Positions 1 through 18,790 of a stretch of DNA of 64,000 nucleotides are shown here, one piece after another. Both the position numbers and the translations under genes were made by a program. The DNA lies in the NCBI GenBank assembly GCA_963807065.1, contig CAWDZQ010000004.1:1415017-1479016 (forward strand), in the 5' to 3' direction. The notes below the pieces were generated by a model. The model saw only the letters and a program-made list of their open reading frames with translations. It ran no database searches and was not told where the DNA came from. The stretch is from an uncultured Chloroflexia bacterium. Lineage in GTDB: Bacteria; Chloroflexota; Anaerolineae; Anaerolineales; E44-bin32. Position 1 is the first letter of the stretch, and each line of letters starts with the position of its first letter.

Positions 1-106
1 TGGTGCCCGACGCCAAAGGGAAGCTGCCAGCATGCGTGACCCGGGGGCTGTTGTGGAGGAAACGATCACTTGCTAAATTGGGGCTTGACAGCAGCGCCTA
101 CATAGA
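1..106 (+). mobile_element. Right end of IS110/IS1111-type family A element (copy A1, truncated by window edge)
   Basis: 1-106 is nearly identical to 3711-3816 and 16788-16893 and ends ...TTGACAGCAGCGCCTACATAGA followed by AG-GCGGAG (cassette start). Confidence 0.9.
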
Positions 107-202
107 AGGCGGAGCCGCCGAGGCCGGTAGCTTCGAGCGTCCACGGGCCAGGTATCCTATGCTAGACACCCTCGCAACATCATCTTGTTTCGGAGGATTT
201 GC

Positions 203-689: not shown

Positions 690-779
690 GGGAGTTCGGA
701 TCCGGCACATTGCGTCCCTCGCCAAGGGGGATCTAGCCCTGCCGGGCGAGCCTCGTCTCCGCCTAACATCTATGAAAGC

Positions 780-1000
780 ACGTCCCCTGTCAATAGCCTC
801 TGTCGTTAAATGAATTTCTTCTCCCCGGTCGGGGAGTTTTCTTTCGTCTGTTGACCTCCAGCGTTTCAAAGCCCAGCCGGTCTCGCCGGAAACATCTATC
901 CCGTAGGACACCGGGACGGTGTTCGCCCTCAATGGGGCATGAGTACGTTCGCCGGGGGCGGCCCAATCATCTCGCGGATCTCAAAGGATCCATGTTAGGT
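780..1000 (-). ncRNA. Putative bridge/seek RNA of IS family B (3' non-coding end)
   Basis: Minus-strand RNA reads CCTAACAT-hairpin-GCGAGATG, matching both halves of target CCTAACATCTCGC. ATAGATG (893-899) is complementary to the donor junction CA-TCTAT. Conserved in all four copies. Transcript boundaries are approximate. Confidence 0.75.
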
Positions 1001-2097
1001 CCGGACCTGCCCCTGGCTGAGCGAGACAGGGGATTTCAACCCTGCAGGGAGCCAATTGGGCGGCTCCCGGTAGGGCTCACCCTTCTTGAGAACCCAGTAG
1101 GTGGCTTCCGCCAAGTAGCGAGCGGTGGCACCCACTGCAACGGCGTGGCCCTTTCGGCGGCGTGTCCGTTCGAAGAGGTGCACGACGTACTTCTTGCGCC
1201 AGTTGGGGTGATGGCGCTGATGGACGATGACGTTGGCGGCTTCGATGAAAGCCCATTTCAGGTAGGTGTTGCACTGTTTGACCATTCGTCCATAGTGCGC
1301 CTTGCCGGCACTTGAGCTGAGCTTGGGAACCAAACCGCAGTAACTGGCGAAGTGTTTGGGGGAGGGGAAACGGTCGATCGAGCCGACTTCCCTGTCGATG
1401 ACGATGGCCAGCACCTTGGCGGGGCCCGGGACGGTCTGAACGAGCTGGATGGTGGGTGTGGTCTGGATGCGTTGGACAATGCGATCTTCCAACTGTTTGA
1501 TATGTACGTTGAGAGCATCCAGGAGCTGAAGCTGCTGGCGAGTGCAGCGGGCGGTCTCGGCCGGCATCTCAACCAGCAGGGCTTCAAGATCCGCCCGCCA
1601 CTTGGCGCTGAAGATGTCACTGGCGGTGTCGAGCGAGAGGGCGAACTTGGCCAGGGTGGAAGAGATGCGGTTCTTGACCCGGGTCCGGTGGCCGGCGAAG
1701 GTCATCCGGGTGCGGGGCAGCTCCCTCTCATCGCGAGGCTGGCAGGAGGGATCCACACAGAGGGGAGCTTGCCCAGGTAGAGCAGGGTGGCCAGGCCCTT
1801 GGCGTCGAGCTTGTCGGTCTTGTGGATGTTGCCCATCATGACCTTGGCCTTGGCGGCGTGGGCCAAGAGGGGAAAGCAGCCGGCGTCTTCGATTTCGTTG
1901 ACGATCCAGTACCAGTTCCCGATCGTTTCGAGGGCGACCGGCGTGCCCTCTGGGAACTGGGATAGGAAGGCTGAAATCGTGCCTGGTGAATGGCCAACCC
2001 TCCTTTGCTGGATGAGCGATCCCGCTTCATCCAGGACGGCAAAGATGGAGAAATGTTTGTGAGCATCGCAGCCGACCGTATAATCGAAGTGAACCAT
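995..2097 (-). CDS. IS110-family recombinase (family B), frameshift near 1740
   Basis: DEDD motifs GCDAHK, ETIG, KTDKLDA, plus C-terminal FASYCGLVP-SSAGK. Split between ORFs 1702..2133 and 995..1756. Confidence 0.9.
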
Positions 2098-2368
2098 GCT
2101 GCACCTCCTGTGGGCGGACAGGGACTTCGACACTCCCAGTCTAGCGGGAGGTGCAGTGCTTTCATCTAATCATCTCGCTGGATCGGACCGGGGATGCGGG
2201 GCGAGTTTGGTGTGTTTGTTGTATGCTCAGGGAGGCTCGGGGGCGGGGCGGATGCGTGGCCCCGGCCGATCAGCTCGAAGGCGTTAGATGCTATGGGGGG
2301 ATGAAGATACGGGTCGCTGCTGATAAGCTCCTTGAAACTCTCAGATCAAGAGAAAGGAGCGCAACATC

Positions 2369-3514
2369 ATGGCAGCGGCCCGCAGTCACGAGTATAGCGT
2401 ATTGGAACAAGTACTGTATCTGGCCTTCGAACTGAGCAACACAAAGTGGAAACTGGGGTTCACGACGGGGCCAGGGCGGCGGCCCCGCGAGCGGAGCATC
2501 ACCGCCGGGGATCTGGAAGCTCTCCAGGAGGAGATCGGGCGAGCGAAGAAGCGGTTCGATCTGCCTGAGAGCAGTCGAGTGGTGAGCTGCTACGAGGCGG
2601 GACGGGATAGTTTTTGGCTTCATCGATATCTGGAGCAGCAAGGGATCGAGAACCTGGTGGTGGACAGCTCGAGCATTCAGGTGAACCGACGGGCCCGACA
2701 GGCCAAGACTGACCGGATGGACTTGGAGAAACTTCTGGGGCAGCTGATCCGGTACCGGGGAGGGGACCGGGAGGTGTGGAGCGTGGTGCGGGTGCCGAGC
2801 GTGGAGGCGGAGGACAACCGGCAGTTACACCGGGAACTGGAAACCCTGAAGAAGGATCGGACGCGGCACATCAACCGGATCAAGTCGTTCCTGGTGGGGC
2901 AGGGCATCCGGCTGAAGGTGGGGAGTGATTTCCTGGAAGAGATTGAACGGGTGCGCAAATGGGATGGCTCAGCGCTCCCGGCCAGTTTGAAAACCCGGCT
3001 TCAGCGAGAGTATCAGCGGCTTCAGCTGCTGCAGGCCCAGGTCAAGGAGCTGGAGCAGGCGCGGGTGGAGGCGATCCGGCATGGGGAAGACGAGAGTGTG
3101 GAGGTGGTGCGCAAGCTGCTGCGGCTGAACGGGATCGGGCAGAACGCCGGCTGGCTGTTCGGGATGGAGTTCTTCAGTTGGCGGAAGTTCAACAATAGGA
3201 AGGAAGTGGGGGCCCTGGCCGGTCTGGTGCCGATGCCGAGGCAGAGTGGCGACAGCTACCGGGAGCAGGGGATCAGCAAAGCCGGCAACCGGCACGTTCG
3301 GGGGATGGCGATCGAGATAGCATGGGGGTGGCTGCGGTTTCAGCCAGAGAGTGAGCTGACGAAGTGGTATGAGGAGAGATTTGGCCATGGGAGCAAACGG
3401 ATCCGGAAGATCGGGATCGTGGCGCTGGCCAGGAAGCTGCTGATTGAGCTATGGCGCTATTTGGAGACGGGGGCCATTCCTGAGGGGGCGGTGCTGAAGA
3501 CACGGTTGATCTGA
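2369..3514 (+). CDS. IS110-family recombinase (family A), 381 aa
   Basis: Motifs AFELS, YEAG, KTDRMD, GLVPMPRQSG, GISKAGN, IVALARKLL. Confidence 0.95.
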   Translation: MAAARSHEYSVLEQVLYLAFELSNTKWKLGFTTGPGRRPRERSITAGDLEALQEEIGRAKKRFDLPESSRVVSCYEAGRDSFWLHRYLEQQGIENLVVDSSSIQVNRRARQAKTDRMDLEKLLGQLIRYRGGDREVWSVVRVPSVEAEDNRQLHRELETLKKDRTRHINRIKSFLVGQGIRLKVGSDFLEEIERVRKWDGSALPASLKTRLQREYQRLQLLQAQVKELEQARVEAIRHGEDESVEVVRKLLRLNGIGQNAGWLFGMEFFSWRKFNNRKEVGALAGLVPMPRQSGDSYREQGISKAGNRHVRGMAIEIAWGWLRFQPESELTKWYEERFGHGSKRIRKIGIVALARKLLIELWRYLETGAIPEGAVLKTRLI

Positions 3515-3554
3515 AAGGGACGGAAAAGGAGAGAACAGGCAAGCAGGACAACAA

Positions 3555-3790
3555 GGCTGGTGTGAGCAGCTCGTTACTCCGCCGGGTCCGAAGGGACCGA
3601 GCGTTAGATGGGGCGCTCACCAGAGCTTCCAGGATCGCCGACGAGCGAACAAAGCATTGGGTGACCGGCCAAAGACGAGCCGGCACGGATAGAAGGTAGT
3701 TCGAGGCACTTGGTGCCCGACGCCAAAGGGAAGCTGCCAGCATGAGTGACCCGGGGGCTGTTGTGGAGGAAACGATCACTTGCTAAATTG
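3555..3790 (+). ncRNA. Putative bridge/seek RNA of IS family A
   Basis: Stem GTGAGC/GCTCAC closes the loop CTCCGCC-(GGTCC GAAG GGACC)-GAGCGTTAG, matching target CTCCGC-CT-AACGC. A second loop AGCAT...ATAGAAG matches the circle junction. Boundaries are approximate. Confidence 0.75.
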
Positions 3791-3888
3791 GGGCTTGACA
3801 GCAGCGCCTACATAGAAGGCGGCTGTCAGTGGTATCCATGAAATCTAGAGATGGCCGCGGATATCTCTATTCGAAAGGTGAGCCAAAC

Positions 3889-4539
3889 ATGACAAAACTA
3901 CGCGTGGACTTCTTTACAATTTCCCTGGACGGTTATGGCGCCGGCCCTAATCAGAGTTTCGATAACCCGCTCGGCGTCGGCGGGGAATCCTTGCACGATT
4001 GGTTCGTCGTAACGCGCTCCTTTCACCAAATGGCTGGGCAAGATGAAGGCGAGACCGGTATTGACAACGATTTCGCGGAGCGTGGCACAAAGAATCTCGG
4101 CGCATTCATTATGGGACGCAACATGTTTGGGCCGCCGCAAGGCGGGGACTGGGTCGATGGCACGTGGAAGGGTTGGTGGGGTGATAACCCGCCCTATCAC
4201 GGGCCTGTGTTCGTGCTCACCCACTATCCGCGTGCGTCAGTCACGATGGAGGGAGGCACTACATACCATTTCGTGACCGATGGCATTCATGCTGCGCTCA
4301 AACTGGCCACCGACGCGGCGAACGGCAAAGATATTCGACTAGCCGGAGGCGTGGCGACAATCCGGCAATACCTTAAGGCAAAGCTGATTGACCAGATGCA
4401 CATTCCAATCTCGCCAATTGTGCTTGGCACGGGTGAATCGCTGTTCTCCGGCATTGACATGGTCAAGCTCGGTTACGTCGTCACTGAACACGTCCCGACT
4501 GCAAGGGCAACACATATTGTTCTGGCGAAACATGAATAG
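3889..4539 (+). CDS. Cassette 2: dihydrofolate reductase family (RibD C-terminal domain) protein
   Basis: Motifs ISLDGYGAGP, GAFIMGRNMF, PVFVLTH, GGVATIRQYL, PIVLGTG. Start ATG follows AAAGGTGAG. Confidence 0.9.
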   Translation: MTKLRVDFFTISLDGYGAGPNQSFDNPLGVGGESLHDWFVVTRSFHQMAGQDEGETGIDNDFAERGTKNLGAFIMGRNMFGPPQGGDWVDGTWKGWWGDNPPYHGPVFVLTHYPRASVTMEGGTTYHFVTDGIHAALKLATDAANGKDIRLAGGVATIRQYLKAKLIDQMHIPISPIVLGTGESLFSGIDMVKLGYVVTEHVPTARATHIVLAKHE

Positions 4540-4568
4540 ACCGAGGCCCTGTTTCCCTCACCCTTCCC

Positions 4569-5916
4569 TGAACGAGCCGGGGACATAGGTAACAGAATCT
4601 TCTAAGGACATCGGTAACACAGATTCTAAGGACATAGGTAACACTTTCTCGAGAGAGGAGGTGGAGCCGATGCCCTGGGAAGGTGTTACCGTGAGCGAGC
4701 AGAAGCAGCGATTCATCGAAGACCACCTGCTGAACTACTACTCCGTGACGGAGCTGGCTGAACGGTTCAGCATCTCCAGAAAGACAGCGCATAAGTGGAT
4801 CAACCGGTACCGGGAGCGGGGCCTGGCAGGGCTTGAGGAGCTGTCGCGCCGGCCGGAGAGCTGCCCATGGCAGACGCCGGGCGCCATCGTCAGCGAGGTG
4901 GTGAATCTGCGGAAGGCGCATCCTCGCTGGGGGCCGAAGAAGCTCCTGGCGTTGATGGGGCGGCGCGATCCACAGCGACGCCTGCCGGCGGCATCGACGG
5001 TGGCCAAGATCCTGTCGGAAGCGGGGCTAGCAAAGCCCAGGCGGCGGCACCGGCGAGCCCATCCCGGCTGTCCGAAGACCCGGCCTGCAGGGCCGAACGA
5101 CATCTGGGCGGCGGACTACAAGGGGCAGTTCAGGCTGAAGAACGGGAAGTACTGCTTCCCGCTGACGGTGAGCGACCTGGCGAGCCGGTATCTGCTGGGG
5201 TGCGATGCGCATCCGGCGATCTCGCTGGAGCGCAGCCAGGCACATTTCAGGCGTCTTTTCGAGATCTACGGGCTGCCGAACCGGATCCGGACCGACAACG
5301 GGGTGCCGTTCGCCTCCAACGCCCTGGCCAGGCTGTCCCAGCTCTCAGTGTGGTTCATTCGGCTCGGGATCTACCCGGAGCTCATTGAGCCTGGGAAGCC
5401 CCAGCAAAACGGTGTGCACGAGCGAATGCACAAGACGTTGAAAGAGGAGGCAACGATCCCACCAGCCAGCAGCTTCAAGGGCCAACAGAAAAAGCTGGAT
5501 GCCTTCCTTCAGGAGTTCAACCAGGTGCGTCCACATGAAGCGCTGGGGATGAAGAGCCCGTCGGAGGTGTACCGCCCATCCAGCCGTCCCATGCCCCAGA
5601 AGATCGAGACCTACGAGTACCCTGGGCACTACCTGGTGCGGAGGGTGAGCCGGTCAGGGACGATCCGGGTGCTGAGGAAGCAGATCTTTGTGAGCAACAC
5701 GCTGCAGGAGGACTTTGTGGGACTGGAGGAGGTGGGAGACGGCGTGTTTGATGTGTACTTCTGCTTCTACCAGATTGGGCGCTATGATTTGCGGGAGGGG
5801 CGAATGCAGGATATTGTGTCGAAGGTGGGCGTGAGCCGAAAGCAGGTCGATCGGCCGGAGCGAGTGTAACCGATGTCCGTAGAACAAAGTGTTACCCATG
5901 TCCTCGGACAGTACCC
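4569..5916 (+). mobile_element. IS481-family element inserted between cassette-2 gene and its attC
   Basis: Three GGACAT(A/C)GGTAACA repeats at the left end (4581, 4607, 4630) and two inverted copies at the right end (5866, 5890), flanking a DDE transposase. Exact termini are approximate. Confidence 0.85.
4661..5869 (+). CDS. IS481-family transposase (HTH + rve integrase core)
   Basis: MPWEG start, HTH FSISRKTAHKW, catalytic WAADYKG, RTDNG, QNGVHERMHKTLK. Confidence 0.92.
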   Translation: MEPMPWEGVTVSEQKQRFIEDHLLNYYSVTELAERFSISRKTAHKWINRYRERGLAGLEELSRRPESCPWQTPGAIVSEVVNLRKAHPRWGPKKLLALMGRRDPQRRLPAASTVAKILSEAGLAKPRRRHRRAHPGCPKTRPAGPNDIWAADYKGQFRLKNGKYCFPLTVSDLASRYLLGCDAHPAISLERSQAHFRRLFEIYGLPNRIRTDNGVPFASNALARLSQLSVWFIRLGIYPELIEPGKPQQNGVHERMHKTLKEEATIPPASSFKGQQKKLDAFLQEFNQVRPHEALGMKSPSEVYRPSSRPMPQKIETYEYPGHYLVRRVSRSGTIRVLRKQIFVSNTLQEDFVGLEEVGDGVFDVYFCFYQIGRYDLREGRMQDIVSKVGVSRKQVDRPERV

Positions 5917-5923
5917 CCACGCC

Positions 5924-6024
5924 GCCCAACAACTCGATGGAGCCGACCCGGCCAGCCGAGCGGTAGCCATTTGTGCGATACTAGTCTTCGGCTGGCCGGG
6001 CGGCTCATCTCGAGGCCGTTAGGG
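5924..6024 (+). repeat. attC2 (101 bp, uninterrupted)
   Basis: GCCCAAC...GTTAGGG with long imperfect palindrome TCGATGGAGCCGACCCGGCCAGCCGA / TCGGCTGGCCGGGCGGCTCATCTCGA. Confidence 0.88.
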
Positions 6025-6047
6025 GGCATTCAGAATAAGGGGCATTC

Positions 6048-6762
6048 ATGGACCAGCCAGCCTCGCCAGGCAGAGAATCAGTGGACCTTCAGAATGCCAC
6101 TTCAGAACTCCGGCAAGAAATCGATCAGGCGGAGCATCTAGCAGGCAATCTCAAGGGAGGGCCGCCAGATAAGACGCGCGAGCAAATCAGTCGCCTACTG
6201 TCTGCGACACGCCCTCCAGCTGGGCAAAGCATCTCTTCTGTGCGCAAATGCGGAACTGCCAGATGCGCTCATTTTGCTTTCCCGGGCGATCTTGGAGACC
6301 CTGTTCTGGGCAAGATATGTCAGCCTATCCGATGAGAACTCCAAGCGATTTGAAGAATTGGCGCTTGAGGATCTGAAGCGTATCTCCCGCAGGAATCTCC
6401 AAGCAGGTTTTGCTCGCATCGTGGATAGCGAAACCAAAGAGGACAAGACAGACGAGTTCCTCGAATCGGATCCAATGAGGTCTGTTCGACCTCGGATGCG
6501 CGTCGAAGAGGTCGCGAATGCTATTGGCTTTGGCCGCTTGTACTCTATGATGTACCTGTTCGACTCGATCTACGCTCACGGAACCTCTTCTGGCCTGCAG
6601 ACAGACTCGAATGTCCACGCACAGCTCTACACATCCGTCTGTGCCGGACTCGGATACATCCACTGCATCAACCTCATTTCATCGGACTGGCTTGGAAGTC
6701 GGAGGCTAACCACTGCTCCCACACTGTCTAGGGTCCTTGGAATTCCCCTCGATGCCCCCTAA
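6048..6762 (+). CDS. Cassette 3: DUF5677-like helical protein, frameshift near 6200
   Basis: LSRAILE-x-LFWARYV and LYSMMYLFDSIYAHG motifs. The stop TAA lies within the attC R'' box. Confidence 0.6.
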
Positions 6763-6764
6763 CA

Positions 6765-8212
6765 TCCATGAAAGCACGGCCCCTGTCAATACCCTCTGGC
6801 GTTAAATGAAGTTCTTCTCCCCCTAGGGGAGTGTTCATCCTTCAGTTGCCCTCCAGCGTTTCAAAGCCCAGCCGGTCTCGCCGGAAACATCCATCCCGTA
6901 GGACACCGGGACGGTGTGCGCCTCTCGATCGAGGCAAGAGTAAGTTCGCCAGGAGTGGCCCAATCATCTCACGGGTCTCAAAGGACCCATACCGCCAACA
7001 ACGCGGCACTTTGTTAGGCGCGGACCTTCTCCTGGCTGAGCGAGACAAGGTGCTTCATCCCTTCGGGGGCCCAGTGAGGGGGCTCCCGATAGGGCTCACT
7101 CTTTTTGAGAACCCAATAGGTGGCCTCCGCCAGGTAGCGAGCGGTGGCGCCGACGGCGACGGCATGGCCCTTGCGGTGTTTGGTGCGTTCATAGAGGTGG
7201 ACGACGTACTTGCGACGCCAGTTGGGATGGTGGCGGTGGCGGACGACAACGTTGGCAGCTTCGATAAAAGCCCACTTGAGGTAGTTGTTGGCTTGTTTCC
7301 CGAAGGACACCGGGACGGTGTGACCATGCGGCCGTAGTGGACGCGCCCTCCGCTGGCGCTGACTTTGGGGACCAGGCCGCAGTAGCTGGCGAAGTGCTTG
7401 GGGGCGCAGAAGCGGTCGATAGTGCCGATCTCAAGAGTGATGACGGTGGCCAGGATGGCACCCACACCAGGGAGGGTTTGGACGAGCTGCATGCTGTGGG
7501 TGAGCTTGATCCGCTGCTTGATTCTCGCTTCCAGTTGGTTGATGTGATCCTGGACCAGCTCGAGCAGTTCGAGCTCCTGGTGCATGCAGCGACCGGTCTC
7601 CTCGGGCAGTGTGTCGATGAGCTTGAGCAGCGGAGGCCGCCATTTGGGGGTGAAGATATCGCTGGTGGTGTCCAGGGAAAGAGCATACTTGGCCAGGGTG
7701 GAATGAATGCGATTCTTGAGACTAGCCCTGGACTTGGAGAAAGCCATACGGGTGCGGGGCAGTTCACGGGCGTCGCGGACGTCGTTGGGTGGGATCCAGA
7801 CCGATGGTAGCTTGCCCAGGTAGAGCAGGGTGGCTAGGCCCTGGGCGTCGAGCTTGTCGGTCTTGTGAACGTTGCCCATCATGACTTTGGCTTTGGCAGC
7901 GTGAGCCAGAAGCGGGATGCAGCCGGCGTCTTCGATCTCGTCGACGATCCAATACCAGTTGCCGACGGTCTCAAGTGCCACCGGGGTCCCTTGGGGGAAC
8001 TGCTCCAGAAACATGCGAATCGCTCCAGGCACGTGGCCGACCCGGGTGCGCTGGACCAGGTCCCCGTTGTGGTCCAGGACTGCAAAGAGCGAGAAATGCT
8101 TGTGAGCATCAATGCCGACCGTATAATCTGAGTGGAACATGCTGCACCTCCTTTGCGGAACGGTGGCTTCGACACTACCAGTCTAGCGGGAGGTGCAGTG
8201 CTTTCATACAAT
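6765..8212 (-). mobile_element. IS1111-type family B copy B2
   Basis: Same IRs and CA core as B1, with ends TCC-ATG and CAT-ACAAT. Confidence 0.92.
7014..8140 (-). pseudogene. IS110 recombinase B2, frameshifted by a 23-nt insertion at 7299-7321
   Basis: HYGRMV|insert|KQANNYLKWAFIEAA. The same insert is in B3, so it is not a read error. Confidence 0.88.
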
Positions 8213-8376
8213 CATCTCGCTGGATCGGACCGGGGATGCTGGGCGAATTTGGTGTGATTGTTGTATGCTCAGGATGGCTCGGGGGCAAGGAGGAGAATGA
8301 CCCCGGCCGATCCCCTTCGGCTGCGCTCAGGATGCTTCGCGAAGCTCGAGGGCGTTAGGCAGATCCAAAGGTAGGT

Positions 8377-9288
8377 ATGGACTACGATCTTTACCATGAT
8401 GAGTCGAAACTCGATGGGTACTGGCATGGAATGCTTCTTGTGCCCAAACCGAAGCGGCAATGGATGCTCGACCGACTTGCCGACGCGAGAGCCAATGCTC
8501 GCTACTCGGAGCCCTTGGGAATAAAGCGAGTACGGAAAGAGAACCGCGTCTTTGATTGCGCGAAATCTTGGCTCACCGTTGCGATCGCCTCGATGCGGAG
8601 CACGGCAGGCGGAGAGCCTGTGCCCATCTATCTCGGCAAGTCAAAGAGGGGTGTTCCTCAGTACCGACTTGTCGAGGAGGCTCCGGGCGCCAAATTCATC
8701 CTCTTCAGGGAAAGCGATGCGCACCAGGAAATGACCAGCCACCCTGACCATGCGAGCAAAATCGAAACTACATTCAGAATTGGGCTCAAGGGTGGACTGC
8801 ACTTCCTCGGCTCCGAGCAGAAGTCAATATGGATCGATAGCTTGCACTTCGACGGCCACGAGCATCTGAAGCGGAATGTCGACGCCTCACGGATCATAGG
8901 CCGATTGGAAGGCCTCAGGAGCTACTGCCACATTCCCGACAAGTCAGACATTCTTCACGACGGCTCAAGTGACCACCGCAGGCCCGACGCGCAATCCTAC
9001 GATGATTGCCAGTTCTTGCAGTTGACGGACTTGCTTGTTGGATCCTTCCGGACAGTGCTTCTCGGGGCCACAAACGATCTTCATCTCCGAGTGGCCTATC
9101 CTGTCGAGTCGCTTGTTCTCCGATATCAAGAAGGCTACGCCAGGATGAAGAACAGTCGATGGTGGAGTTCCTTCTGCATGAGCCAATGCCACCTTGAAGA
9201 TGATCACTGGGTTTTCGAAACCATGGAGTACGAGCCCTACTACGGTGCAGCCCAAATCGCGCTTCCACTGCAAACGGGATCTGCCTAA
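8377..9288 (+). CDS. Cassette 4: DUF3800-like (RNase H-fold) protein
   Basis: N-terminal LYHDES, central FDG and C-terminal LQLTDLLVG motifs. Stop lies in R'' GCCTAAC. Confidence 0.65.
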   Translation: MDYDLYHDESKLDGYWHGMLLVPKPKRQWMLDRLADARANARYSEPLGIKRVRKENRVFDCAKSWLTVAIASMRSTAGGEPVPIYLGKSKRGVPQYRLVEEAPGAKFILFRESDAHQEMTSHPDHASKIETTFRIGLKGGLHFLGSEQKSIWIDSLHFDGHEHLKRNVDASRIIGRLEGLRSYCHIPDKSDILHDGSSDHRRPDAQSYDDCQFLQLTDLLVGSFRTVLLGATNDLHLRVAYPVESLVLRYQEGYARMKNSRWWSSFCMSQCHLEDDHWVFETMEYEPYYGAAQIALPLQTGSA

Positions 9289-9290
9289 CA

Positions 9291-10737
9291 TCCATGAAAG
9301 CACGGCCCCTGTCAATACCCTCTGGCGTTAAAGAAGTTCTTCTCCCCGCAGGGAAGTGTTCATCCTTCAGTTGCCCTCCAGCGTTTCAAAGCCCAGCCGG
9401 TCTCGCCGGAAACATCCATCCCGTAGGACACCGGGACGGTGTGCGCCTCTAGATCGAGGCAAGAGTAAGTTCGCCAGGGGTGGCCCAATCATCTCGCGGG
9501 TCTCAAGGGACCCATACCGCCAACAACGCGGCACTTTGTTAGGCGCGGACCTTCCCTTGGCTGAGCGAGATAGGGTGCTTCATCCCTTCGGGGGCCCAGT
9601 GAGGGGGCTCCCGATAGGGCTCACTCTTTTTGAGAACCCAATAGGTGGCCTCCGCCAGGTAGCGAGCGGTGGCGCCGACGGCGACGGCATGGCCCTTGCG
9701 GTGTTTGGTGCGTTCATAGAGGTGGACGACGTACTTGCGACGCCAGTTGGGATGGTGGCGGTGGCGGACGACAACGTTGGCAGCTTCGATAAAAGCCCAC
9801 TTGAGGTAGTTGTTGGCCTGTTTCCCGAAGGACACCGGGACGGTGTGACCATGCGGCCGTAGTGGACGTGCCCACCGCTAGCGCTGACTTTGGGGACCAG
9901 GCCGCAGTAGCTGGCGAAGTGCTTGGGAGCGCTGAAGCGGTCGATAGAGCCGACTTCGAGACAGGTGACGATGGCCAGGATGGCGCCCACGCCGGGGAGG
10001 GATTGGACGCGCTGCATGCTGTCGGAGAGCTTGATCCGCTGCTTGATCCTGGCTTCTAGCTGGCCAATGTGATCCTGGACCAGCTCTAGCAGTTCGAGTT
10101 CCTGGTGCATGCAGCGGCCGGTCTCTTCCGGCAGCGTGTCGATGAGCTTGAGCAGCGGAGGCCGCCATTTGGGGGTGAAGATATCGCTGGTGGTGTCCAG
10201 GGAAAGAGCATACTTGGCCAGGGTGGAATGAATGCGATTCTTGAGACTAGCCCTGGACTTGGAGAAAGCCATACGGGTGCGGGGCAGTTCACGGGCGTCG
10301 CGGACGTCGTTGGGTGGGATCCAGACCGATGGTAGCTTGCCCAGGTAGAGCAGGGTGGCTAGGCCCTGGGCGTCGAGCTTGTCGGTCTTGTGAACGTTGC
10401 CCATCATGACTTTGGCTTTGGCAGCGTGAGCCAGAAGCGGGATGCAGCCGGCGTCTTCGATCTCGTCGACGATCCAATACCAGTTGCCGACGGTCTCAAG
10501 TGCCACCGGGGTCCCTTGGGGGAACTGCTCCAGAAACATGCGAATCGCTCCAGGCACGTGGCCGACCCGGGTGCGCTGGACCAGGTCCCCGTTGTGGTCC
10601 AGGACTGCAAAGAGCGAGAAATGCTTGTGAGCATCAATGCCGACCGTATAATCTGAGTGGAACATGCTGCACCTCCTTTGCGGAACGGTGGCTTCGACAC
10701 TACCAGTCTAGCGGGAGGTGCAGTGCTTTCATACAAT
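9291..10737 (-). mobile_element. IS1111-type family B copy B3
   Basis: Near-identical to B2, with the same junctions. Confidence 0.92.
9539..10665 (-). pseudogene. IS110 recombinase B3, frameshifted by a 23-nt insertion at 9824-9846
   Basis: Same lesion as B2. Confidence 0.88.
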
Positions 10738-10879
10738 CATCTCGCTGGATCGGACCGGGGATGCGGTGGCATTTTGGCCTGGATGGTGTATTCTCAGAAT
10801 CGGCTACGGGGCTTGAGGGTTCGTGGCCCCGGCCGATCAGCTCGAGGGCGTTAGATCGCCTTGAAGTGGCAGGAGCAAG

Positions 10880-11499
10880 ATGGGGATTCAAGAGATTCAG
10901 CAGTACGTTACTTTGATCAAAGATGTACTAACCGCTTTGGCGGCGGTGAGCGCCGCCTGCATCGGCTTTTTAGGCCTCGCCACCTGGAGAAAGCAGCTCA
11001 GGGGAAGACAGAATATGAGCTGGCAAGGCGCGTGCTTGTAGCGGTTTACAGGCTCAGGAATGCCGTGTCGTACTTCCGAAATCCTTTCATGACCCCCGGT
11101 GAAATCTCCAACTCCATGGAACGCGAAGGAATGAAAGCGGAACCTGCCGACAGGGAATATCGCTTCAGGTCCACATCCGCGGTCTACAAAGTGAGATGGG
11201 AGAAGATTTCGGACGCCTCCACTGACTTGGAAATCAATGCGATTGAGGCAGAGGTTCTCTGGGGGCGGGGAATCCAGGAAACCTTGATAGAAGTGTCGCG
11301 TTTGATTTCCGATCTAAATTTCAACGTGGGATGGTACCTCAGGGAGCTTGCCGGATACGGCAGTGGAAAACCAGACGATATCGAGCGGCTGGAAAAGTGC
11401 GTATTCTCGATGGGTCCGGAAAACGATGAGTTCGCGAAGAAGTTGTCGGCTGCTGTCGAAGCGGTAGAGGACTTTCTCAAGCCGTTTCTAAGAATCTAA
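10880..11499 (+). CDS. Cassette 5: hypothetical protein with N-terminal TM helix, frameshift near 11000
   Basis: ATG after AGGAG. MGIQEIQQYVTLIKDVLTALAAVSAACIGFLGLATWRKQL joins GKTEYELARRVLVAVYRLR of ORF 10861..11499. Confidence 0.7.
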
Positions 11500-11513
11500 T
11501 CGGCGATCTAACA

Positions 11514-12894
11514 TCTATGAAAGCACGTCCCCTGTCAATAGCCTCTGCCGTTAAATGAACATCTTCTCTCTGGTTGGAGAGTGTTTTTCTTCTTGAGTTG
11601 ACCTCCAGCGCTTCAAAGCTAAGCCGGTCTCGCCGGAAACATCTATTCGCCCTCAATGGGGCATGAGTATGTTCGCCAGGGGCGGCCCAATCATCTCGCG
11701 GATCTCAGTGGACCCATGTTAGCCGCGGACCTTCCCCTGGCTGAGCGAGACAGGGGACTTCATCCCTCCGGGAGCCCAGTGAGGAGGCTCCTGGTAGGGC
11801 TCGCCCTTCTTGAGAACCCAGTAAGTAGACTCGGCCAGATAGCGAGCGGTGGCGCCGACGGCGACAGCGTGGCCCTTTCGCCGGCGGTTGCGCTCGAAGA
11901 GGTGGACGACGTACTTCCTGCGCCAGTTGGCGTGGTGTCGGTGAGCCACGATGACGTTGGCGGCTTCGATGAAAGCCCATTTCAGGTAGGTGTTGGCCTG
12001 CTTAACCATCCGCCCGTAGTGGGCACGGCCGGCACTGGCACTGACTTTGGGCACCAGGCCGCAGTAGCTAGCGAAGTGGTTAGGAGCGCTGAAGCGGTCG
12101 ATGGAGCCGATCTCTCGATCGATGACGATGGCCAGCACTTTGGCCGGCCCGGGAACCGTTTGGACCAACTGGATTGTGGGTGTGGTTTGGATGCGCTCGA
12201 CGATCCGGTCTTCCAGCTGCTTGATGTGGCTGTTCAGAGCGTCGAGGAGCTGCAGCTGCTGGGATGTGCAGCGGGCGGTTTCGGCAGGCAGGTGCTGCAG
12301 CAGGTCTTCGAGATCGCTCCGCCGTCTGGAGGCGAAGATATCACTGGCGCCGTCCAGAGAAAGGGCGTACTTGGCCAGGGTGGAGGAGATTCGGTTCTTG
12401 ACCCGGGTGCGGTGGCCGGCGAAGGTCATCCGGGTGCGGGGCAGCTCACGCTCGTCACGGACCTCAGTCGGTGGGATCCAGACAGAGGGGAGTTTGCCCA
12501 GGTAGAGGAGAGTGGCCAGGCCGTGGGCATCGAGCTTGTCGGTCTTGTGGATGTTGCCCATCATGACCTTGGCCTTGGCGGCGTGAGCCAGGAGCGGGAT
12601 GCAGCCGGAAGCTTCGATCTCGTCCACGATCCAGTACCAATTGCCAACAGTCTCCAAGGCAACGGGTGTCGCATCTGGGAACTGGGAAAGAAAGTCTCCA
12701 ATGGCGCCCGGCACGTGGCCGACGCGGACCTGTTGGGCCAGCTGGCCCGCTTCATCCAGCACAGCGAAGAGTGAGAAATGCTTGTGGGCATCACAGCCGA
12801 TCGTATAATCTGAATGAACCATGCTGCACCTCCTTGGGTGGACAGGGAACCAGACACTCCCAGTCTAACGGGAGGTGCAGTGCTTTCATCTAAT
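11514..12894 (-). mobile_element. IS1111-type family B copy B4 (intact)
   Basis: Same IRs and core as B1, and no mini-insertions. Confidence 0.93.
11719..12822 (-). CDS. IS110-family recombinase (family B), intact 367 aa
   Basis: Full DEDD domain and C-terminal Tnp domain in one frame. Confidence 0.95.
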   Translation of the reverse strand: MVHSDYTIGCDAHKHFSLFAVLDEAGQLAQQVRVGHVPGAIGDFLSQFPDATPVALETVGNWYWIVDEIEASGCIPLLAHAAKAKVMMGNIHKTDKLDAHGLATLLYLGKLPSVWIPPTEVRDERELPRTRMTFAGHRTRVKNRISSTLAKYALSLDGASDIFASRRRSDLEDLLQHLPAETARCTSQQLQLLDALNSHIKQLEDRIVERIQTTPTIQLVQTVPGPAKVLAIVIDREIGSIDRFSAPNHFASYCGLVPKVSASAGRAHYGRMVKQANTYLKWAFIEAANVIVAHRHHANWRRKYVVHLFERNRRRKGHAVAVGATARYLAESTYWVLKKGEPYQEPPHWAPGGMKSPVSLSQGKVRG

Positions 12895-13086
12895 CATCTC
12901 GCTCGATGGGACCGGGGATGCGGGGCGATTTTGGAGCGAGCGTTGTGTTATCGGCATGGGCTTGGAGAAGAGATGTTGATCGACCCCGGCCCATCAGCTC
13001 GGACGCGTTAGGGAGCGCCACCAACTTCATCGGCCGCTCCTTTCCCTAAAGTCGGCCTGAACACAATAATGCACACCAGCATGGTT

Positions 13087-13114
13087 TTGTGCTTAGAACA
13101 TTTGTTGCTATAAT
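13087..13114 (+). promoter_or_regulatory. Sigma70-type promoter of the R-M cassette
   Basis: TTGTGC-16 nt-TATAAT with extended -10 TGn, upstream of RBS GAGGAGG. Confidence 0.6.
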
Positions 13115-13153
13115 CTCTCCCGAAATCATTCTGAGGAGGAGAAGTTTCAAACT

Positions 13154-14044
13154 GTGCCTGGGACACACACATCAAGCTTTGGCACCGGCAAGCGCGAGTC
13201 TCATGACTCAAGTGATTTTTACTCTCGCAGCATGCTTTCTTCCACGAGCCTCGCCCCACTCTCGCACACGGACCTAGGCGAAATCCAGGTTCCGTCAGTC
13301 GGTTCATGGGCTGACAATATTTACTGCTCCTCTGCCACAGACATGAAAGAGGTCCCAGACAACTCTGTAGCGCTCTCGTTCACGTCACCCCCATACAATG
13401 TGGGGAAAGACTACGACGACGACATCAATGTGTCAGAGTATCTCCAACTCATTGAGGATGTTGGCAGAGAGGTCTTTAGGGCTCTGCGTCCCGGAGGAAG
13501 ATACCTGATCAACATCGCCAATGTCGGCAGGAAGCCATACATTCCCCTCCACTCGCTCTTTTGGAATCTACATCTAGGCATCGGATTTCTTCCGATGGGA
13601 GAGATAATCTGGCAAAAGGCCAAGGGCGCCAACGGAAGCTGCGCATGGGGTAGTTGGATGAGCGCGAAAGCTCCAAGGCTGAGGGATGTACACGAGTACA
13701 TTCTTGTGTTGGCCAAGCATTCCTATTCCAGGCCCGACAAGGGTGTATCGGACGTCTCCCGAGAGGAGTTCATGGATTCAACACTCTCTGTTTGGCCAAT
13801 TCCACCGGAGTCAGCCAAGAGAGTGGGTCATCCGGCACCATTCCCCATCGCCTTGGCCTCAAGAGTCGTCAAACTCTACAGCTACGTCGATGACGTTGTG
13901 ATTGATCCATTCGCTGGCTCCGGGACGACTTGCGTAGCTGCCGCACAGTTGGGTCGCCACTTCGTGGGATACGACATTTCGCAAGAGTACTGCCAGCTGG
14001 CCGAAGAAAGGCTGCTTCTGGAGGGGCACAAGTCACTAGTTTAG
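13154..14044 (+). CDS. Cassette 6: beta-class N4/N6 DNA methyltransferase
   Basis: Motif IV TSPPY precedes HPAPFP and motif I DPFAGSGT. Confidence 0.92.
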
Positions 14045-14058
14045 GCACACAATTAGCC

Positions 14059-15108
14059 ATGCCCACTCCACGGACCGAAGCATCCGAGTTAGCCGTCGCC
14101 TTTGGAATTCTCTCTCTGAATCCTTCTGAACCACTCTCAGACCAAGAGAGGGAGTATCACTTTCAGTCGACCCTTCCCCTTGCAAGCTATGTATCGTTCG
14201 TGAGTGAGTATTCGAATAATGTGGATCTCCACAGCAGGATGTACAGTGTTGGAAGACGGCTCCGTTCTTCCTTCTCAGAGTTCCAAAGAGTTCGACTCTT
14301 CTCAGATGGGCTGGACCTAACCAACAAGCATCCACTATTTCTGCGGCGTCCGATCTTCTGGTTTCCAACACGCCGGTAAGCGTAAAAGCTATTAGCGACG
14401 TAGTGGCCAATCCGTCCCCCTACAATCTGATCTACAATCTCCCCAGCGGGCAGGCGTTTTCTCAGAACGAACAGAACTGGTACTTGGAACAAGCACCTGC
14501 CGAATTCCAAGATGTGTATGGATTCGTTCGCAATTCAGATTCGAGATTGGCGTATCTTCCATCGCAAGTTGCCGACTTTGAGGCCGGTGCGTCACGACAA
14601 GACCGCAAACTCGTCCAGTTGGCCATAAGCGAATATGAACAGGGTTCCAAGGATGCGTTCATCCGCTTCTACCTAGACATGTGTCACGCCGTTGCGAATT
14701 CATCTGCGCACGAGTTCAACTCGAGGATGTCTGCGTCCCTAGGAGGAAGATCAAGGACGGCGATTGTCGAAAACGTCATGCGCTGGTTCTTTCGGCCTCG
14801 ATGCAGTTCCTTATGTCCTGTGCGGCATCAATTCCAATGACGAGTTTGGGTTGCAGATACCTTCACTGACGGACTTCAAATTCAAATGGGAGCTCACGAC
14901 TATTCACGCGTTGGCTGATTTGAATCGCCGCCAGAGCGTCGTAGGATTCAGGCTGGAATTCAATTCCAAGTCTGGACATCTAAGGCATGTCGCGAACTTC
15001 CACACAGAATTGCGTTGGTCTCATGGCAGATTCTGTGGGGTTCCCGAGGCAAAGCTCTACAAGGACTTCCACTACTACGAACTGCCCTTCTTCCAGCGTC
15101 TAATCTAG
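14059..15108 (+). CDS. Cassette 6: putative type II restriction endonuclease (several frameshifts)
   Basis: Follows the MTase directly. Fragments 13930..14379, 14403..14840 and 14764..15108 join, and an alternative frame reads SDLLVSNTPVSVK (PD-x-K-like). Confidence 0.6.
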
Positions 15109-15120
15109 CCTCTAGGGGCT

Positions 15121-15294
15121 CTCTAACATCTCGCTGGATCCCTGGAGGAACACCAGGATCTTCGACGGACCGGGGATGCCGGGCGAGTTTGGCGTGATTG
15201 TTGTATGCTCAGGATGGCCCAGGGGTTAGGCGGTGACTGGCCCCGGCCGATCCCCACAAAGAACGCGGGACTTCGCAGTTCGAGGGCGTTAGAT
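15121..15294 (+). repeat. attC6, carrying two mini-insertions and IS A3 at R'
   Basis: CTCTAACATCTCGCTGGAT...CGGACCGGGG...CCCCGGCCGAT...GCGTTAG. Confidence 0.85.
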
Positions 15295-16893
15295 GCTATG
15301 GGGGATGAAGATGCGGGTCGCTGCTGATAAGCTCCTTGAAACTCTCGGATCAAGAGAAAGGAGCGCAACATCATGGCAGCGGCCCGCAGTCACGAGTATA
15401 GCGTATTCGAATCGGTGCTGTATCTGGCCTTCGAACTGAGCAACACAAAGTGGAAACTGGGGTTCACGACAGGGCCGAGTCGCCGGCCACACGAGCGGAG
15501 CATCACCGCCGGGGATCTGGAAGCTCTCCAGGAGGAGATCGGGCGAGCGAAGAAGCGGTTCGATCTGCCTGAGAGCAGCCGGGTGGTGAGCTGTTACGAG
15601 GCGGGCAGAGACGCCTTCTGGTTGCACAGGTACCTGGAACAGCAGGGGATCGAGAACCTGGTGGTGGACAGCTCTAGCATCCAGGTGAACCGACGGGCCC
15701 GACAGGCCACACCTGCCCTGGCGGGCGGTGCCAGGGAGACTGACCGGATGGACTTGGAGAAACTTCTGGGGCAGCTGATCCGGTACCGGGGAGGGGACCG
15801 GGAGGTGTGGAGCGTGGTGCGGGTGCCGAGCGTGGAGGCGGAGGACAACCGGCAGTTACACCGGGAACTGGAAACCCTGAAGAAGGATCGGACGCGGCAC
15901 ATCAACCGGATCAAGTCGTTCCTGGTGGGGCAGGGCATCCGGATGAAGGTGGGGAGTGATTTCTTGGAAGAGATCGAACGGGTGCGCAAATGGGATGGCT
16001 CAGCGCTCCCGGCCAGCCTGAAAGCCCGGCTTCAGCGAGAGTATCAGCGGCTTCAACTGCTGCAGGAGCAGGTCAAGGAGCTGGAGCGGGCGCGGGTGGA
16101 GGCGATCCGGCATGGGGAAGACGAGAGTGTGGAGGTGGTGCGCAAGCTGATGCGGCTGAACGGGATCGGGCAGAACGCCGGCTGGCTGTTCGGGATGGAG
16201 TTTTTCAGCTGGCGGAAGTTCCCTGGCCTGCGCCTAGGGCAGGCAACAATAGGAAGGAAGTGGGGGCCCTGGCCGGTCTGGTGCCGATGCCGAGGCAGAG
16301 TGGCGACAGCTACCGGGAGCAGGGGATCAGCAAAGCCGGCAACCGGCACGTTCGGGGGATGGCGATCGAGATCGCATGGGGGTGGCTGCAGTTTCAGCCG
16401 GAGAGTGAACTGACCAAGTGGTATGAGGAACGATTTGGCCATGGGAGCAAACGGATCCGGAAGATCGGGATCGTGGCGCTGGCCAGGAAGCTGATGATTG
16501 AGCTATGGCGCTATCTGGAGACGGGAGCTATCCCTGAAGGGGCGGTGCTGAAGGCACGGTTGATTTGAGAGAGATCCAAAGAGGAAAGGACGGGCGAAAA
16601 GGGACAACCAGGCTGGTGCCCTGGTGCCCAGGATGGGTATGAGCAGCTCGTTACTCCGCCGGGTCCGAAGGGACCGAGCGTTAGATGGGGCGCTCAGCAG
16701 AGCTTCCAGGATCGCCGACGAGCGAACAAAGCATTGGGTGACCGGCCAAACAAGAGCCGGCACGGATAGAAGGTAGTTCGAGGCACTTGGTGCCCGACGC
16801 CAAAGGGAAGCTGCCAGCATGAGTGACCCGGGGGCTGTTGTGGAGGAAACGATCACTTGCTAAATTGGGGCTTGACAGCAGCGCCTACATAGA
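15293..16893 (+). mobile_element. IS1111-type family A copy A3
   Basis: Same ends and AG core as A2. Confidence 0.92.
15373..16568 (+). pseudogene. IS110 recombinase A3 with a 27-nt in-frame and a 23-nt frameshifting insertion
   Basis: Versus A2: insert 15710-15736 (KT becomes TPALAGGARET) and insert 16221-16243. Confidence 0.88.
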
Positions 16894-16913
16894 AGGCAGA
16901 CTGATTTCTTCAG

Positions 16914-17805: not shown

Positions 17806-17885
17806 GGCCAGACTCCCTCATTCGTTGCAACCCTTTTGCCAGAGGGCAATTCTCTGAAGTCGGCCCATATGCGAGGAGCCATTTC

Positions 17886-18770: not shown

Positions 18771-18790
18771 GGGCTTCAACATCGCTCGCC

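Follow-up and report, generated by a model that had tools for sequence, protein, structure and literature searches.

Discrete insertions of 21-30 nt from several sequence families occupy insertion sequences in a Chloroflexota genome and recur in its relatives

Our comparison of repeated copies in the genome of an uncultured Chloroflexota bacterium, centered on a stretch of 64,000 nucleotides (the window, to which coordinates refer unless stated otherwise), supports the existence of discrete, very small insertions. They have fixed ends and shared junctions, belong to several families, nest in one another, and recur at unrelated sites and across genomes. The reading we favor, with a probability of about 0.55, is that they are small elements mobilized in trans, like REPs or the small dispersed repeats (SDRs) of cyanobacteria, and that here they are mostly passengers of insertion sequences. 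When repeated copies were compared genome-wide, the clean indels separated by length into two groups, with 134 places of 1-5 nt and 42 places of 22-27 nt; outside these groups, there were only 2 places of 6-21 nt and a single longer one.

The insertions were recognized in two sets of sibling IS110-family copies, which provide both filled and empty sites. Four of these copies have their transposase on the minus strand: B1 (763..2179), whose transposase frame is broken; B2 (6759..8221) and B3 (9285..10746), both hosts of mini-inserts like B1; and B4 (11505..12905), which carries no mini-inserts and therefore serves as the empty-site reference. The intact 367-aa transposase of B4 matches the Pfam families DEDD_Tnp_IS110 and Transposase_20. 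The other two copies lie on the plus strand, where A1 (2285..3830), with an intact 381-aa transposase, is the empty-site reference for A2 (15290..16897), the host of three mini-inserts. When the siblings were aligned (B1-B4 with each other, A1 with A2), each motif appeared as a clean gap in a motif-free sibling. All motif positions given in an earlier note on this DNA, which was made from the letters alone, were recovered, where chance would be expected to yield none: the 23-mer matched at 900, 6895, 7299, 9420 and 9824 (5 matches, compared to 0 in 100 shuffles) and a 22-mer at 6991 and 9516 (2, compared to 0 in 100 shuffles).

In B1-B3, these matches resolve into three sites, all filled on the plus strand. 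Site a, in the non-coding end, holds the commonest unit, which we call fam1, at 900..922 in B1 (23 nt, an exact match, with a gap in B4), at 6895..6917 in B2 and at 9420..9442 in B3. Site b holds a 22-nt insert at 6991..7012 in B2, just 3' of the transposase stop codon, and at 9516..9537 in B3; related inserts are found in other genomes. Site d holds fam1 again. Its 23-nt copy at 7299..7321 lies within the B2 transposase reading frame, and tblastn shows that it puts the last 94 codons out of frame; the copy at 9824..9846 in B3 is supported by exact match, sibling alignment and tblastn. The three inserts of A2 are each a gap in A1. The transposase gene contains a 27-nt fam2 unit on the minus strand (15710..15736), which is in frame, and a 23-nt fam3 unit on the plus strand (16221..16243), which shifts the frame, and the non-coding end contains a 21-nt insert on the plus strand (16619..16639) that is the only copy in the genome. 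The fam2 unit has two near-identical copies elsewhere in the genome and hosts fam1 in other genomes, while relatives of the fam3 insert are present both at C3:19075 and at IS110-B site c. In addition, contigs from an independent run (X3) contain the filled form at 16221 and 16619 and both junctions of the insert at 15710. Some of the insertion sites had been ascribed to donor loops of guide RNAs; this identity was not confirmed, as Rfam gave no match and single-sequence folds were uninformative.

For the genome-wide survey, fam1 was defined as a 23/24-mer with its exemplar at 900-922. It has 30 copies in the genome, all within mobile elements: 27 at four IS110-B sites, 2 at an rve/IS481-type gene (fragments), and 1 in a Phage_integrase ORF adjoining an IS91-type gene. 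Fourteen of the 30 lie within protein-coding frames, and 2 more by the IS481-type gene fragments. The earlier note had found no units outside the array, which proved wrong: 25 of the 30 copies lie outside the window, and the unit is also present in 10 of 41 relatives and in 13 of 301 genomes of the order, at a low load of at most ~27 copies per genome. Outside this genome, fam1 is often nested within other mini-repeats, having been found inside a fam2 unit and inside two other small repeat types; conversely, one fam1 copy is split by a fam2-like unit. The 5' half of fam1 is directly joined to the 3' half in 100 of 117 cases, and several of the others are split by another mini-element. Many of the nested copies of one genome share long flanks, and these are copies of a composite rather than separate events. 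Among 22 IS110-B copies from 11 genomes, we counted about 14 insertion sites, 3 of which hold different families, and these sites fall in stretches conserved among subfamilies. The IS110-B copies of the present genome are filled at site a in 10 of 11 cases and at site b in 8 of 11. Mini-inserts occur in both orientations relative to the host gene, and most of those in IS110 transposase genes shift the frame.

The junctions are highly regular. In 98 fam1 instances from many genomes, the base at -1 is T in 97, the base at -2 is C in 77, and the base at +1 is G in 90. In line with what had been read from the window alone, no target bases turn up duplicated when filled siblings are compared with empty ones. 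A duplication is absent at 8 of the 9 IS110-B sites of this genome, the exception being site g, where a 22-nt insert contains a 14-nt palindromic remnant and has an 8-bp direct duplication on its flanks. The direct duplication of target bases that characterizes MITEs is confined to site g, and the constant C-T before and G after the units, with no duplication, match the pattern of miniature elements derived from IS200/IS605. The hairpin folds proposed for the units held up modestly: six of nine window inserts have z values of -1.3 to -2.05, and the other three fold no better than shuffles. The window inserts (21-30 nt) form one stem or two overlapping stems, and a compensatory stem change was seen once in fam1 and once in fam3. 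A GTAG head directly before the stem occurs only in some fam1 variants. The second-place base among 112 instances is A in 84, C in 18 and T in 6, the commonest variants having A or C there, and neither GTAG nor GTGG heads were found in the other mini-insert families.

Three further inserts, all on the plus strand, lie in the arms of attC-like repeats, and these too are real, as the earlier note had held. A 30-nt insert (8313..8342) directly follows GATC in a right arm; a 26-nt insert (15140..15165) lies in the left arm of a repeat that measures 169 nt in all; and a 24-nt insert (15253..15276) lies in the right arm of that same repeat, again after GATC. The genome has 39 full attC-like repeats, of which 30 are 119-120 nt and 9 are longer; the repeat with the insert at 8313..8342 measures 149 nt, compared to the standard 119. 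The same 30-nt insert is found in the same place in 5 of the 39 repeats, and inserts related to that of 15253..15276 in the same place in 4 of the 39. For the insert at 15140..15165, there are contig branch points at 15166/15167. The base before the attC-arm inserts is C, not T. Two of the three show no better folding than their shuffles, and this group may be distinct from the other mini-inserts.

Sequence comparison indicates that the inserts either postdate the divergence of their host IS copies or are reversible. Between subfamilies, inserts are 93-100% identical, compared to 74-91% for the 30 nt on either side, and flanks are no more alike in filled-filled pairs than in filled-empty pairs. 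In copies that share the same frameshifting inserts, most differences fall on the third position of codons in the frame as it would read uninterrupted. This excess extends downstream of the inserts (examples of differences at the three codon positions are 2/4/18, 4/5/30 and 7/1/16) and has p values of 8e-4 to 1e-9 in 8 of 9 pairs. In addition, the insert-free B4 is 93% identical to a copy with five inserts. At site d of the copy at C1:259123, the local flank is a mosaic resembling the C2 copy, which points to gene conversion between IS copies, and some of the shared sites may have spread in this way. The earlier note had described the class as active. The apparent youth or reversibility of the inserts agrees with this, but the genome has no plausible mobilizing enzyme and all 30 fam1 copies lie in mobile elements, so the units possibly arrived as passengers.

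Indeed, none of the enzyme groups searched (Y1/RAYT, Y2, RT, TnpB and TopIB) tracks the elements. The co-occurrence with HUH genes that the earlier note proposed to look for came out negative, as RAYT-like genes and fam1 are not associated: of the 25 sampled genomes that share the window's bacterial family, 4 have both, 5 have only fam1, 7 have only the RAYT-like gene, and 9 have neither. In the present genome (G000), the only Y1-like domain is a sub-threshold match in a 439-aa protein (22.5 bits, with a cut-off of 23), and we found neither an IS200/IS605 TnpA or TnpB nor, at 91% completeness, an RVT_1 match. Y1_Tnp was also absent from our search of the fam1-bearing G008, G111 and G326, incomplete MAGs (97, 96 and 87% complete) in which a gene may be missed. 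A search of the neighborhoods of fam1 copies, 130 loci in all (766 kb), gave no RAYT-like match. In the fam1-rich relative G007, the RAYT-like gene lies between 29-nt palindromes of its own, which differ from fam1, and we saw no REPtron in which a RAYT gene is flanked by mini-inserts as its cognate repeats. IS91-type rolling-circle elements are not supported as the mobilizer either. Among 41 genomes, Y2_Tnp was found in 7, which do not include the fam1-rich G007, G014 and G024, and its sole copy in the present genome is split.

According to our preferred reading, the units would be non-coding elements of 21-30 nt, most of them with a CCC start, a short stem closing on GGG, and a tail of 4-8 nt, on which a mobilizer encoded elsewhere would act in trans. 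They would enter at a pyrimidine-rich C-T-G, either after the T or between C and T (a one-base ambiguity), duplicating no target bases and keeping their own ends exact. Landing would favor small hairpin repeats of other kinds and a small number of hot spots within IS110-family elements, so that units would pile up and nest, and in IS110 copies would break the transposase frame. Gain and loss would outpace the divergence of the IS110 copies, through repeated insertion at the same site or precise loss. In the present genome, the units would most likely have been carried along by insertion sequences and cassettes, with local activity the less likely case. As to the chemistry, we tentatively prefer, by analogy, a cut-or-copy-and-paste of the folded single strand by an HUH-type nuclease, which is possible rather than probable; such a scheme has been put forward for REPs and demonstrated for IS200/IS605.

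Considering that no enzyme family follows the elements, they might have no dedicated enzyme and owe their spread to short-patch ectopic gene conversion, or to switches of template while DNA is being replicated or repaired. In the latter case, a nascent strand would use short flank homology (C-T / G, or conserved IS110 flanks), and the hairpin would make the polymerase switch back. This would suit the low copy numbers, the location of IS110-B sites in subfamily-conserved stretches, which would allow homeologous exchange, and the mosaic at site d of one copy. However, the ends are exact at unrelated sites that share only three flank bases, where microhomology copying should leave ragged ends and donor flank; between subfamilies, filled copies have flanks no more alike than filled and empty copies do; and one site can be occupied by different families. 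We therefore consider such spread unlikely. Slightly less likely again, the units could be site-specific single-strand elements that excise precisely and switch IS110 and other transposases off and on, or a host tool for disabling mobile-element genes. The enzyme would then have to come from a family so far without a known role in transposition, because Y1, Y2, RT, TnpB and TopIB all fail to track the elements.

It is improbable that the inserts are excision footprints, in other words terminal inverted repeats left by larger cut-and-paste transposons at shared hot spots. Most units do consist of a short inverted repeat plus a few bases, different families are found at the same sites, and the site g insert is truly footprint-like in its palindromic remnant and duplication. 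Elsewhere, target duplications are absent, identical 23/24-mers with conserved loops recur in many genomes, the two halves are mostly contiguous with no long element seen bracketed between them, and the nesting of units goes both ways. More improbable still is the copying of a small structured RNA by reverse transcription, with insertion of the cDNA. Some reverse transcriptases add C residues, and the small size, hairpin and fixed C-rich end of the units would fit such an origin, but this end is constant and part of the stem rather than made of ragged added bases, units are found in either orientation with respect to the host gene, and RVT_1 has no match in this genome, which is 91% complete. 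We give a little less credence again to the view that inserts are tolerated, being removed at the RNA level or skipped in translation so that transposases stay functional. The purifying selection on the uninterrupted frame of copies sharing frameshifting inserts speaks for it, as does the X subfamily, which has six inserts and a broken frame and is nevertheless present in three different cassettes at 97-98% identity. Against it, the insert at site h supplies an in-frame stop, inspection by eye revealed no take-off and landing codons that match, the same data are explained if insertion is recent or reversible, and we know of no bacterial mechanism that fits the removal or skipping of a unit of 22-24 nt. 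Finally, repeats are error-prone in a four-contig assembly from a metagenome-like source, but the chance of assembly or binning artefacts is negligible, given the same units at the same sites in independent genomes, filled junctions in contigs of another run, and regular sizes and ends.

Ever since small dispersed repeats were described in cyanobacteria, it has been asked how DNA of ~23 bases can move, and the way in which REPs spread is likewise still debated. The present lineage offers clean material, with exact pairs of filled and empty sites, a strong three-base target, family-shared hot spots, mutual nesting, and a signal of insert turnover faster than host divergence. Since dozens of related genomes contain these units at very different loads, the missing enzyme can be searched for by phyletic profiling. 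In addition, the silent breakage of transposase genes by the inserts will mislead anyone annotating IS110-type (bridge-RNA) recombinases in genomes of this kind.

Among known systems, the Rickettsia palindromic elements are likewise palindromic repeats within reading frames, but according to the excerpts of PMC3733652 they are several times longer, are in frame, and leave host proteins thought to be functional, whereas most inserts here shift the frame. IS200/IS605 elements (in part after excerpts of PMC3333891) are similar in needing no terminal inverted repeats, in lacking target duplication next to a short specific sequence, and in having hairpins at their ends and precise excision as a rule, but they are far longer and depend on a subterminal hairpin at each end. 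The mini-inserts do not show such a distinct left and right pair, nor was a cognate TnpA found in this genome, where Y1_Tnp has no match above the cut-off. REPs and REPINs with their RAYT (TnpA-REP) Y1 HUH nucleases were compared after PMC3333891, PMC8266576 and PMC3733652. The E. coli TnpA-REP is described as acting on single strands only, needing the REP hairpin in cis and little else beyond C^T at the cut, and cutting over >400 nt around a resident element (PMC3333891, excerpts). An enzyme with these needs would account for the clustering of the units and for their C-T target. REPs can also lie within reading frames, and one Chloroflexota species has REPs that entered small palindromes (PMC3733652). 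Shared features are the short length of the units (20-40 nt in REPs), whose hairpins are modestly supported here, C-T in the target, clustering at resident copies and, in some fam1 variants, GTAG directly before the stem. The mini-inserts differ from REPs in having no RAYT gene flanked by them and no RAYT-like co-occurrence, in the lack of a GTAG head in most families, and in occurring as single units rather than doublets and in tens of copies rather than hundreds; fam1 does not show the high copy number and mostly extragenic location of REPs.

The likeness to cyanobacterial small dispersed repeats, to which the earlier note had pointed, is apt because nesting was seen in both directions. The repeats SDR1-8 of Nostocaceae cyanobacteria are reportedly 21-27 nt long. 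Judged by their description only, they share with the present units (21-30 nt) the size range, the dispersal, the existence of several families that are little alike in sequence and may have a similar small fold, and the nesting in each other and in other small repeats. The units described here differ in their host phylum, Chloroflexota, in apparently having no HIP1 context, in their low copy number per genome, and in that their clearest targets are transposase genes and attC-like repeats. Apparently, they add to the cyanobacterial repeats a second example of mobile DNA that is too short for any coding capacity.

The mini-insert observation is real and extends well beyond the window. The first 17 kb of the window form a cassette array with spacers of 119-nt repeats, which are putative attC sites by their form, and the array contains six IS110-family insertion sequences: four copies with the transposase on the minus strand (B1, 763-2179; B2, 6759-8221; B3, 9285-10746; B4, 11505-12905) and two with the transposase on the plus strand (A1, 2285-3830; A2, 15290-16897). 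The Pfam domains DEDD_Tnp_IS110 and Transposase_20 were matched in the intact B4 and A1 proteins, and Rfam matched nothing in window 1-18000 at E-values up to 0.1. An earlier note had read several short motifs in this array as mini-insertions, and this reading was borne out: all listed motifs were recovered in place (5 matches for the 23-mer and 2 for the 22-mer, each against 0 of 100 shuffles), and sibling alignments have a clean gap in whichever sibling is without a given motif. The guide-RNA and donor-loop labels of the note are putative. The three inserts reported in attC arms are also real, as 30 of the 39 full repeats of the genome measure 119-120 nt and 9 are longer, with one 30-nt piece recurring at the same position in 5 of the repeats and 4 sharing a 24-nt piece. 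Contigs of one of four sequencing runs from a single study that may include the source sample (X3) contain the filled junctions 15710, 16221 and 16619. At 16221, contigs of the other three runs (X1, X2 and X4) leave out 23 nt; we rejected an empty allele as the explanation, since these contigs differ at 16-43 other places, and judged by those differences they are sibling copies resembling A1.

Within the genome, at least 39 attC-like repeats of highly uniform 119-nt form are distributed over four places (window 2168-17800; contig C1, 242-260 kb and 410-412 kb; C2, 1-22 kb; C3, 2-7 kb). IS110-family copies occupy the 5' end of many of these repeats, in what we take to be a resemblance to the attC-targeting IS1111 group. 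The window also holds an IS481-type element (rve, HTH_32) at 4560-5900, with a 402-aa ORF at 4661-5869 and a thrice-repeated short motif preceding it; a degraded second copy of its start lies at about 18380 (18380-18800).

To characterize the sizes of such insertions, we ran a self-alignment of the whole genome (3.85 Mb in 4 contigs) and collected gaps with flanks at least 80% identical over 40 nt. This yielded 134 gap places of 1-5 nt, 2 of 11-12 nt, 42 of 22-27 nt and 1 of 71 nt, while a first pass restricted to 15-60 nt found 41 places, with gap lengths of 22 nt (12 places), 23 nt (24), 24 nt (3), 26 nt (1) and 27 nt (1). An indel-size distribution with a gap like this is not what ordinary slippage yields. 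An all-against-all indel search of 130 loci gave only 9 events, as these loci have few repeats in common.

We named the sequence families after window copies: fam1 (900-922; 23 nt, with a 24-nt form elsewhere), fam2 (15710-15736, minus strand) and fam3 (16221-16243). The earlier note had identified no units outside the array, which proved wrong, as fam1 is found in 11 B-type IS110 copies (IS110-B) across the genome, in other elements and in other genomes. It is the second most repeated 14-mer family in the genome, after the attC-like repeats, and totals 30 copies: 27 at four sites of the 11 IS110-B copies; 2 in the transposase gene of two rve/IS481-type element copies; and 1 in a Phage_integrase ORF immediately upstream of an IS91-type transposase gene. 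Among relatives, the fam1 23-mer with up to 2 mismatches was present in 10 of 41 genomes (the window's genome counted), and the reversed control pattern in none. Its 18-nt core with at most 1 mismatch was present in 13 of 301 sampled genomes of the order (same genome counted), at no more than about 27 copies per genome. Setting the window's genome aside, 9 of 31 genomes in its family have the core. A scan of species representatives gave at least 113 stretches with the core; among the 80 listed, 74 are named as Chloroflexota groups, mostly Anaerolineae or Anaerolineales, which suggests Chloroflexota as the host lineage, and 4 of the 6 matches not named as Chloroflexota are missing the head of fam1 and look like chance 18-mer matches.

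In relatives, fam1 mostly lies within other small repeats, one of them a fam2 unit, and conversely a fam2-like unit splits fam1 copies. Many nested copies within one genome have long flanks in common and therefore reflect copying of a composite, not independent events. The halves of fam1 were contiguous in 100 of 117 cases, and among these 117 none was seen to bracket a long element. At several loci of relatives (L013, L018, L021-L024 and others), the mini-elements are surrounded by runs of a 7-nt motif and of short GC-rich hairpins; the runs recall the heptamer-repeat context reportedly found around cyanobacterial small dispersed repeats (SDRs).

When the 11 IS110-B copies of the genome were aligned with 11 loci that come from 10 further genomes in the family, 15 blocks resulted; about 14 represent real sites, 21-27 nt long and distributed over both the non-coding end and the transposase gene. 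At three of these sites, the family that fills the site depends on the genome, and one copy (L158) has three or four inserts of a single family. For the sites labeled a to h in the window's genome, the numbers of filled copies among the 11 are 10 (a), 8 (b), 3 (c), 7 (d), 7 (e), 3 (f), 4 (g) and 3 (h). B4 is the sole copy with an intact 367-aa frame, and it has no mini-inserts. The 23-nt inserts at d and e and the 22-nt inserts at f and g all shift the frame, the 24-nt insert at h introduces an in-frame stop, and in X, one of the IS110-B subfamilies (another is Y), the stretch from e to c is read out of frame. Three X copies (C1:11532-13070, C1:254733-256269 and C3:995465-997003) have all six inserts in common, are 97-98% identical, lie in three different cassettes and have a broken frame; they therefore either spread once broken or were broken in identical fashion three times.

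Most of the units were proposed to begin T/CCC, to fold into small hairpins with a 3' tail and to lack target-site duplications. Judged by eye, and with boundaries ambiguous by 1-2 nt, a CCC start is possible in 12 of the 15 insert types of the genome, and in the same 12 (again by eye) CCC is followed by a stem that ends in GGG, with a 4-8 nt tail behind it; a T precedes CCC at about 11 of 18 distinct sites. Outside this scheme are the inserts of site b (window 6991-7012) and site g and the 21-nt left-arm insert of one attC-like repeat. The site g insert is of a different kind, consisting of a 14-nt palindromic remnant and an 8-bp direct duplication, and has the appearance of the excision footprint of a cut-and-paste transposon. 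It measures 22 nt and is found in the C1:238494-238540 region and three sibling copies. Apart from site g, target bases are not duplicated, as empty siblings show. The proposed fold is supported modestly by single-stranded DNA folding in 6 of 9 units (z -1.3 to -2.05), but the other 3, two of them attC-arm inserts, folded no better than shuffles. A pair-keeping double change recurs in fam1 over several genomes, and one occurs in fam3 too; of the single changes in fam1, two are wobble-compatible and four or five pair-breaking (by eye). Across 98 fam1 instances taken from public genomes, of which 75 have the 24-nt and 23 the 23-nt form, the preceding base is T in 97, the base before that C in 77 and T in 18, and the following base G in 90. 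As the unit itself ends in T, one T is unassignable, and the target is cut either after C-T or between C and T. The attC-arm inserts come after GATC, hence after C, and may therefore constitute a separate class.

Inserts common to many copies could be old shared characters, or could have been transferred along with their surroundings. The subfamilies are 72-79% identical overall, with inserts 93-100% identical and the 30 nt on either side 74-91% identical, and flanks are no more alike in filled-filled than in filled-empty pairs, so that neither explanation holds. Between copies with identical frameshifting inserts, most differences fall on third positions of codons in the uninterrupted frame, within the part that the inserts put out of frame: differences by codon position number 2/4/18, 4/5/30 and 2/3/20 in Y pairs and 7/1/16 and 7/3/18 in X pairs, with p < 0.002 in 8 of 9 pairs. 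G+C content by codon position (0.65, 0.44 and 0.78) is too flat to explain this bias. B4 is also 93% identical to a copy carrying five inserts. Taken together, these observations indicate that IS110-B copies diverged as working genes, so that the inserts are either recent, arriving repeatedly at the same sites, or precisely lost. Conversion between IS copies also occurs, as indicated by a local mosaic at site d of copy C1:259123.

Exact ends at unrelated sites, a three-base target, absence of duplication, nesting and fast turnover together suggest, with a probability of roughly 0.55, that a site-specific nuclease acting in trans cuts and joins the units. Among enzymes whose chemistry has been worked out, HUH Y1 enzymes come nearest. 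Passages of PMC3333891 describe TnpA-REP of E. coli, the Y1 HUH nuclease (RAYT) of short palindromic repeats (REPs), as active on single strands only, requiring a folded REP in cis and C^T at the cut with little else, cutting across more than 400 nt around a resident element and capable of strand transfer, and IS200/IS605 transposases as excising precisely without duplication. Under such a model, a DNA segment already holding one unit would collect further units, small hairpin repeats would be favored as targets, and precise loss would be plausible. The model leaves the missing co-occurrence with Y1 genes unexplained, and we therefore consider HUH Y1 chemistry, by analogy, a rather doubtful candidate for the cutting and joining step.

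The earlier note had proposed examining co-occurrence with HUH genes, and neither Y1_Tnp nor RAYT-like genes follow fam1. Most genomes searched are incomplete MAGs (that of the window is 91% complete), so a miss is not absence. Y1_Tnp occurs in 29 of 41 relatives, with a distribution that does not track that of fam1, and was not found in the fam1-bearing relatives G008, G111 and G326; 25 genomes of the window's family divide into 4 with both a RAYT-like gene and fam1, 5 with fam1 only, 7 with the RAYT-like gene only and 9 with neither. A RAYT adjacent to the units was rejected, with 0 RAYT-like matches in 130 loci around fam1 copies. In the fam1-rich relative G007, an Anaerolineae-type genome, the RAYT-like gene has 29-nt palindromes of its own at its flanks and thus forms a classical REPtron, whose repeat differs from fam1. 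This gene (L144, contig C41, 4740-5380; a 190-aa Y1_Tnp protein) lies between membrane-protein and helicase genes, with near-identical 29-nt palindromes on both sides. The window's genome has a single, sub-threshold Y1-like domain (22.5 bits; cut-off 23). It is C-terminal in a 439-aa protein with a long proline-rich middle (L143, C4:1339537-1340856), whose gene adjoins a response-regulator-like gene; several relatives have open frames of 450-700 aa with similarly weak Y1_Tnp matches.

Other enzymes fared no better as mobilizers. The sole IS91-type Y2 transposase gene of the genome is split, and Y2_Tnp was not found in fam1-rich relatives. This element (L177, C1:262434-265793) comprises the Phage_integrase ORF with a fam1 insert followed by the Zn_Tnp_IS91/Y2_Tnp gene, in which profile positions 127 and 129 are separated by about 1.26 kb. 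The genome, at 91% completeness, gave no match to the reverse transcriptase domain RVT_1 and none of TnpB type, and type IB topoisomerase (PF01028), considered because the target is pyrimidine-rich, was found in none of 5 genomes (the window's and four fam1-bearing relatives). Since all fam1 copies of the window's genome lie in mobile-element genes, no RAYT-like gene was found in its genus, and the same filled sites occur in IS110-B of other genera, the units are probably passengers there.

The SDRs of Nostocaceae are the closest parallel to the mini-inserts: they are reportedly 21-27 nt long, fall into several families and nest. Among the cyanobacteria examined there, the later paper PMC5861425 reports none outside Nostocaceae. 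REPs are the other neighbor, and 4 of the 5 REP-RAYT features tested are not seen in the mini-inserts. Passages of PMC3733652 describe GTAG-headed REPs inserted in small palindromes in one Chloroflexota species, as well as REPs within genes. In the literature covered, outside subscription journals and supplementary files, such units are described neither for Chloroflexota nor for IS110 elements. The mini-inserts represent a new form of a type of mobile DNA that is known but little understood, and they are useful as tractable data on an old question.
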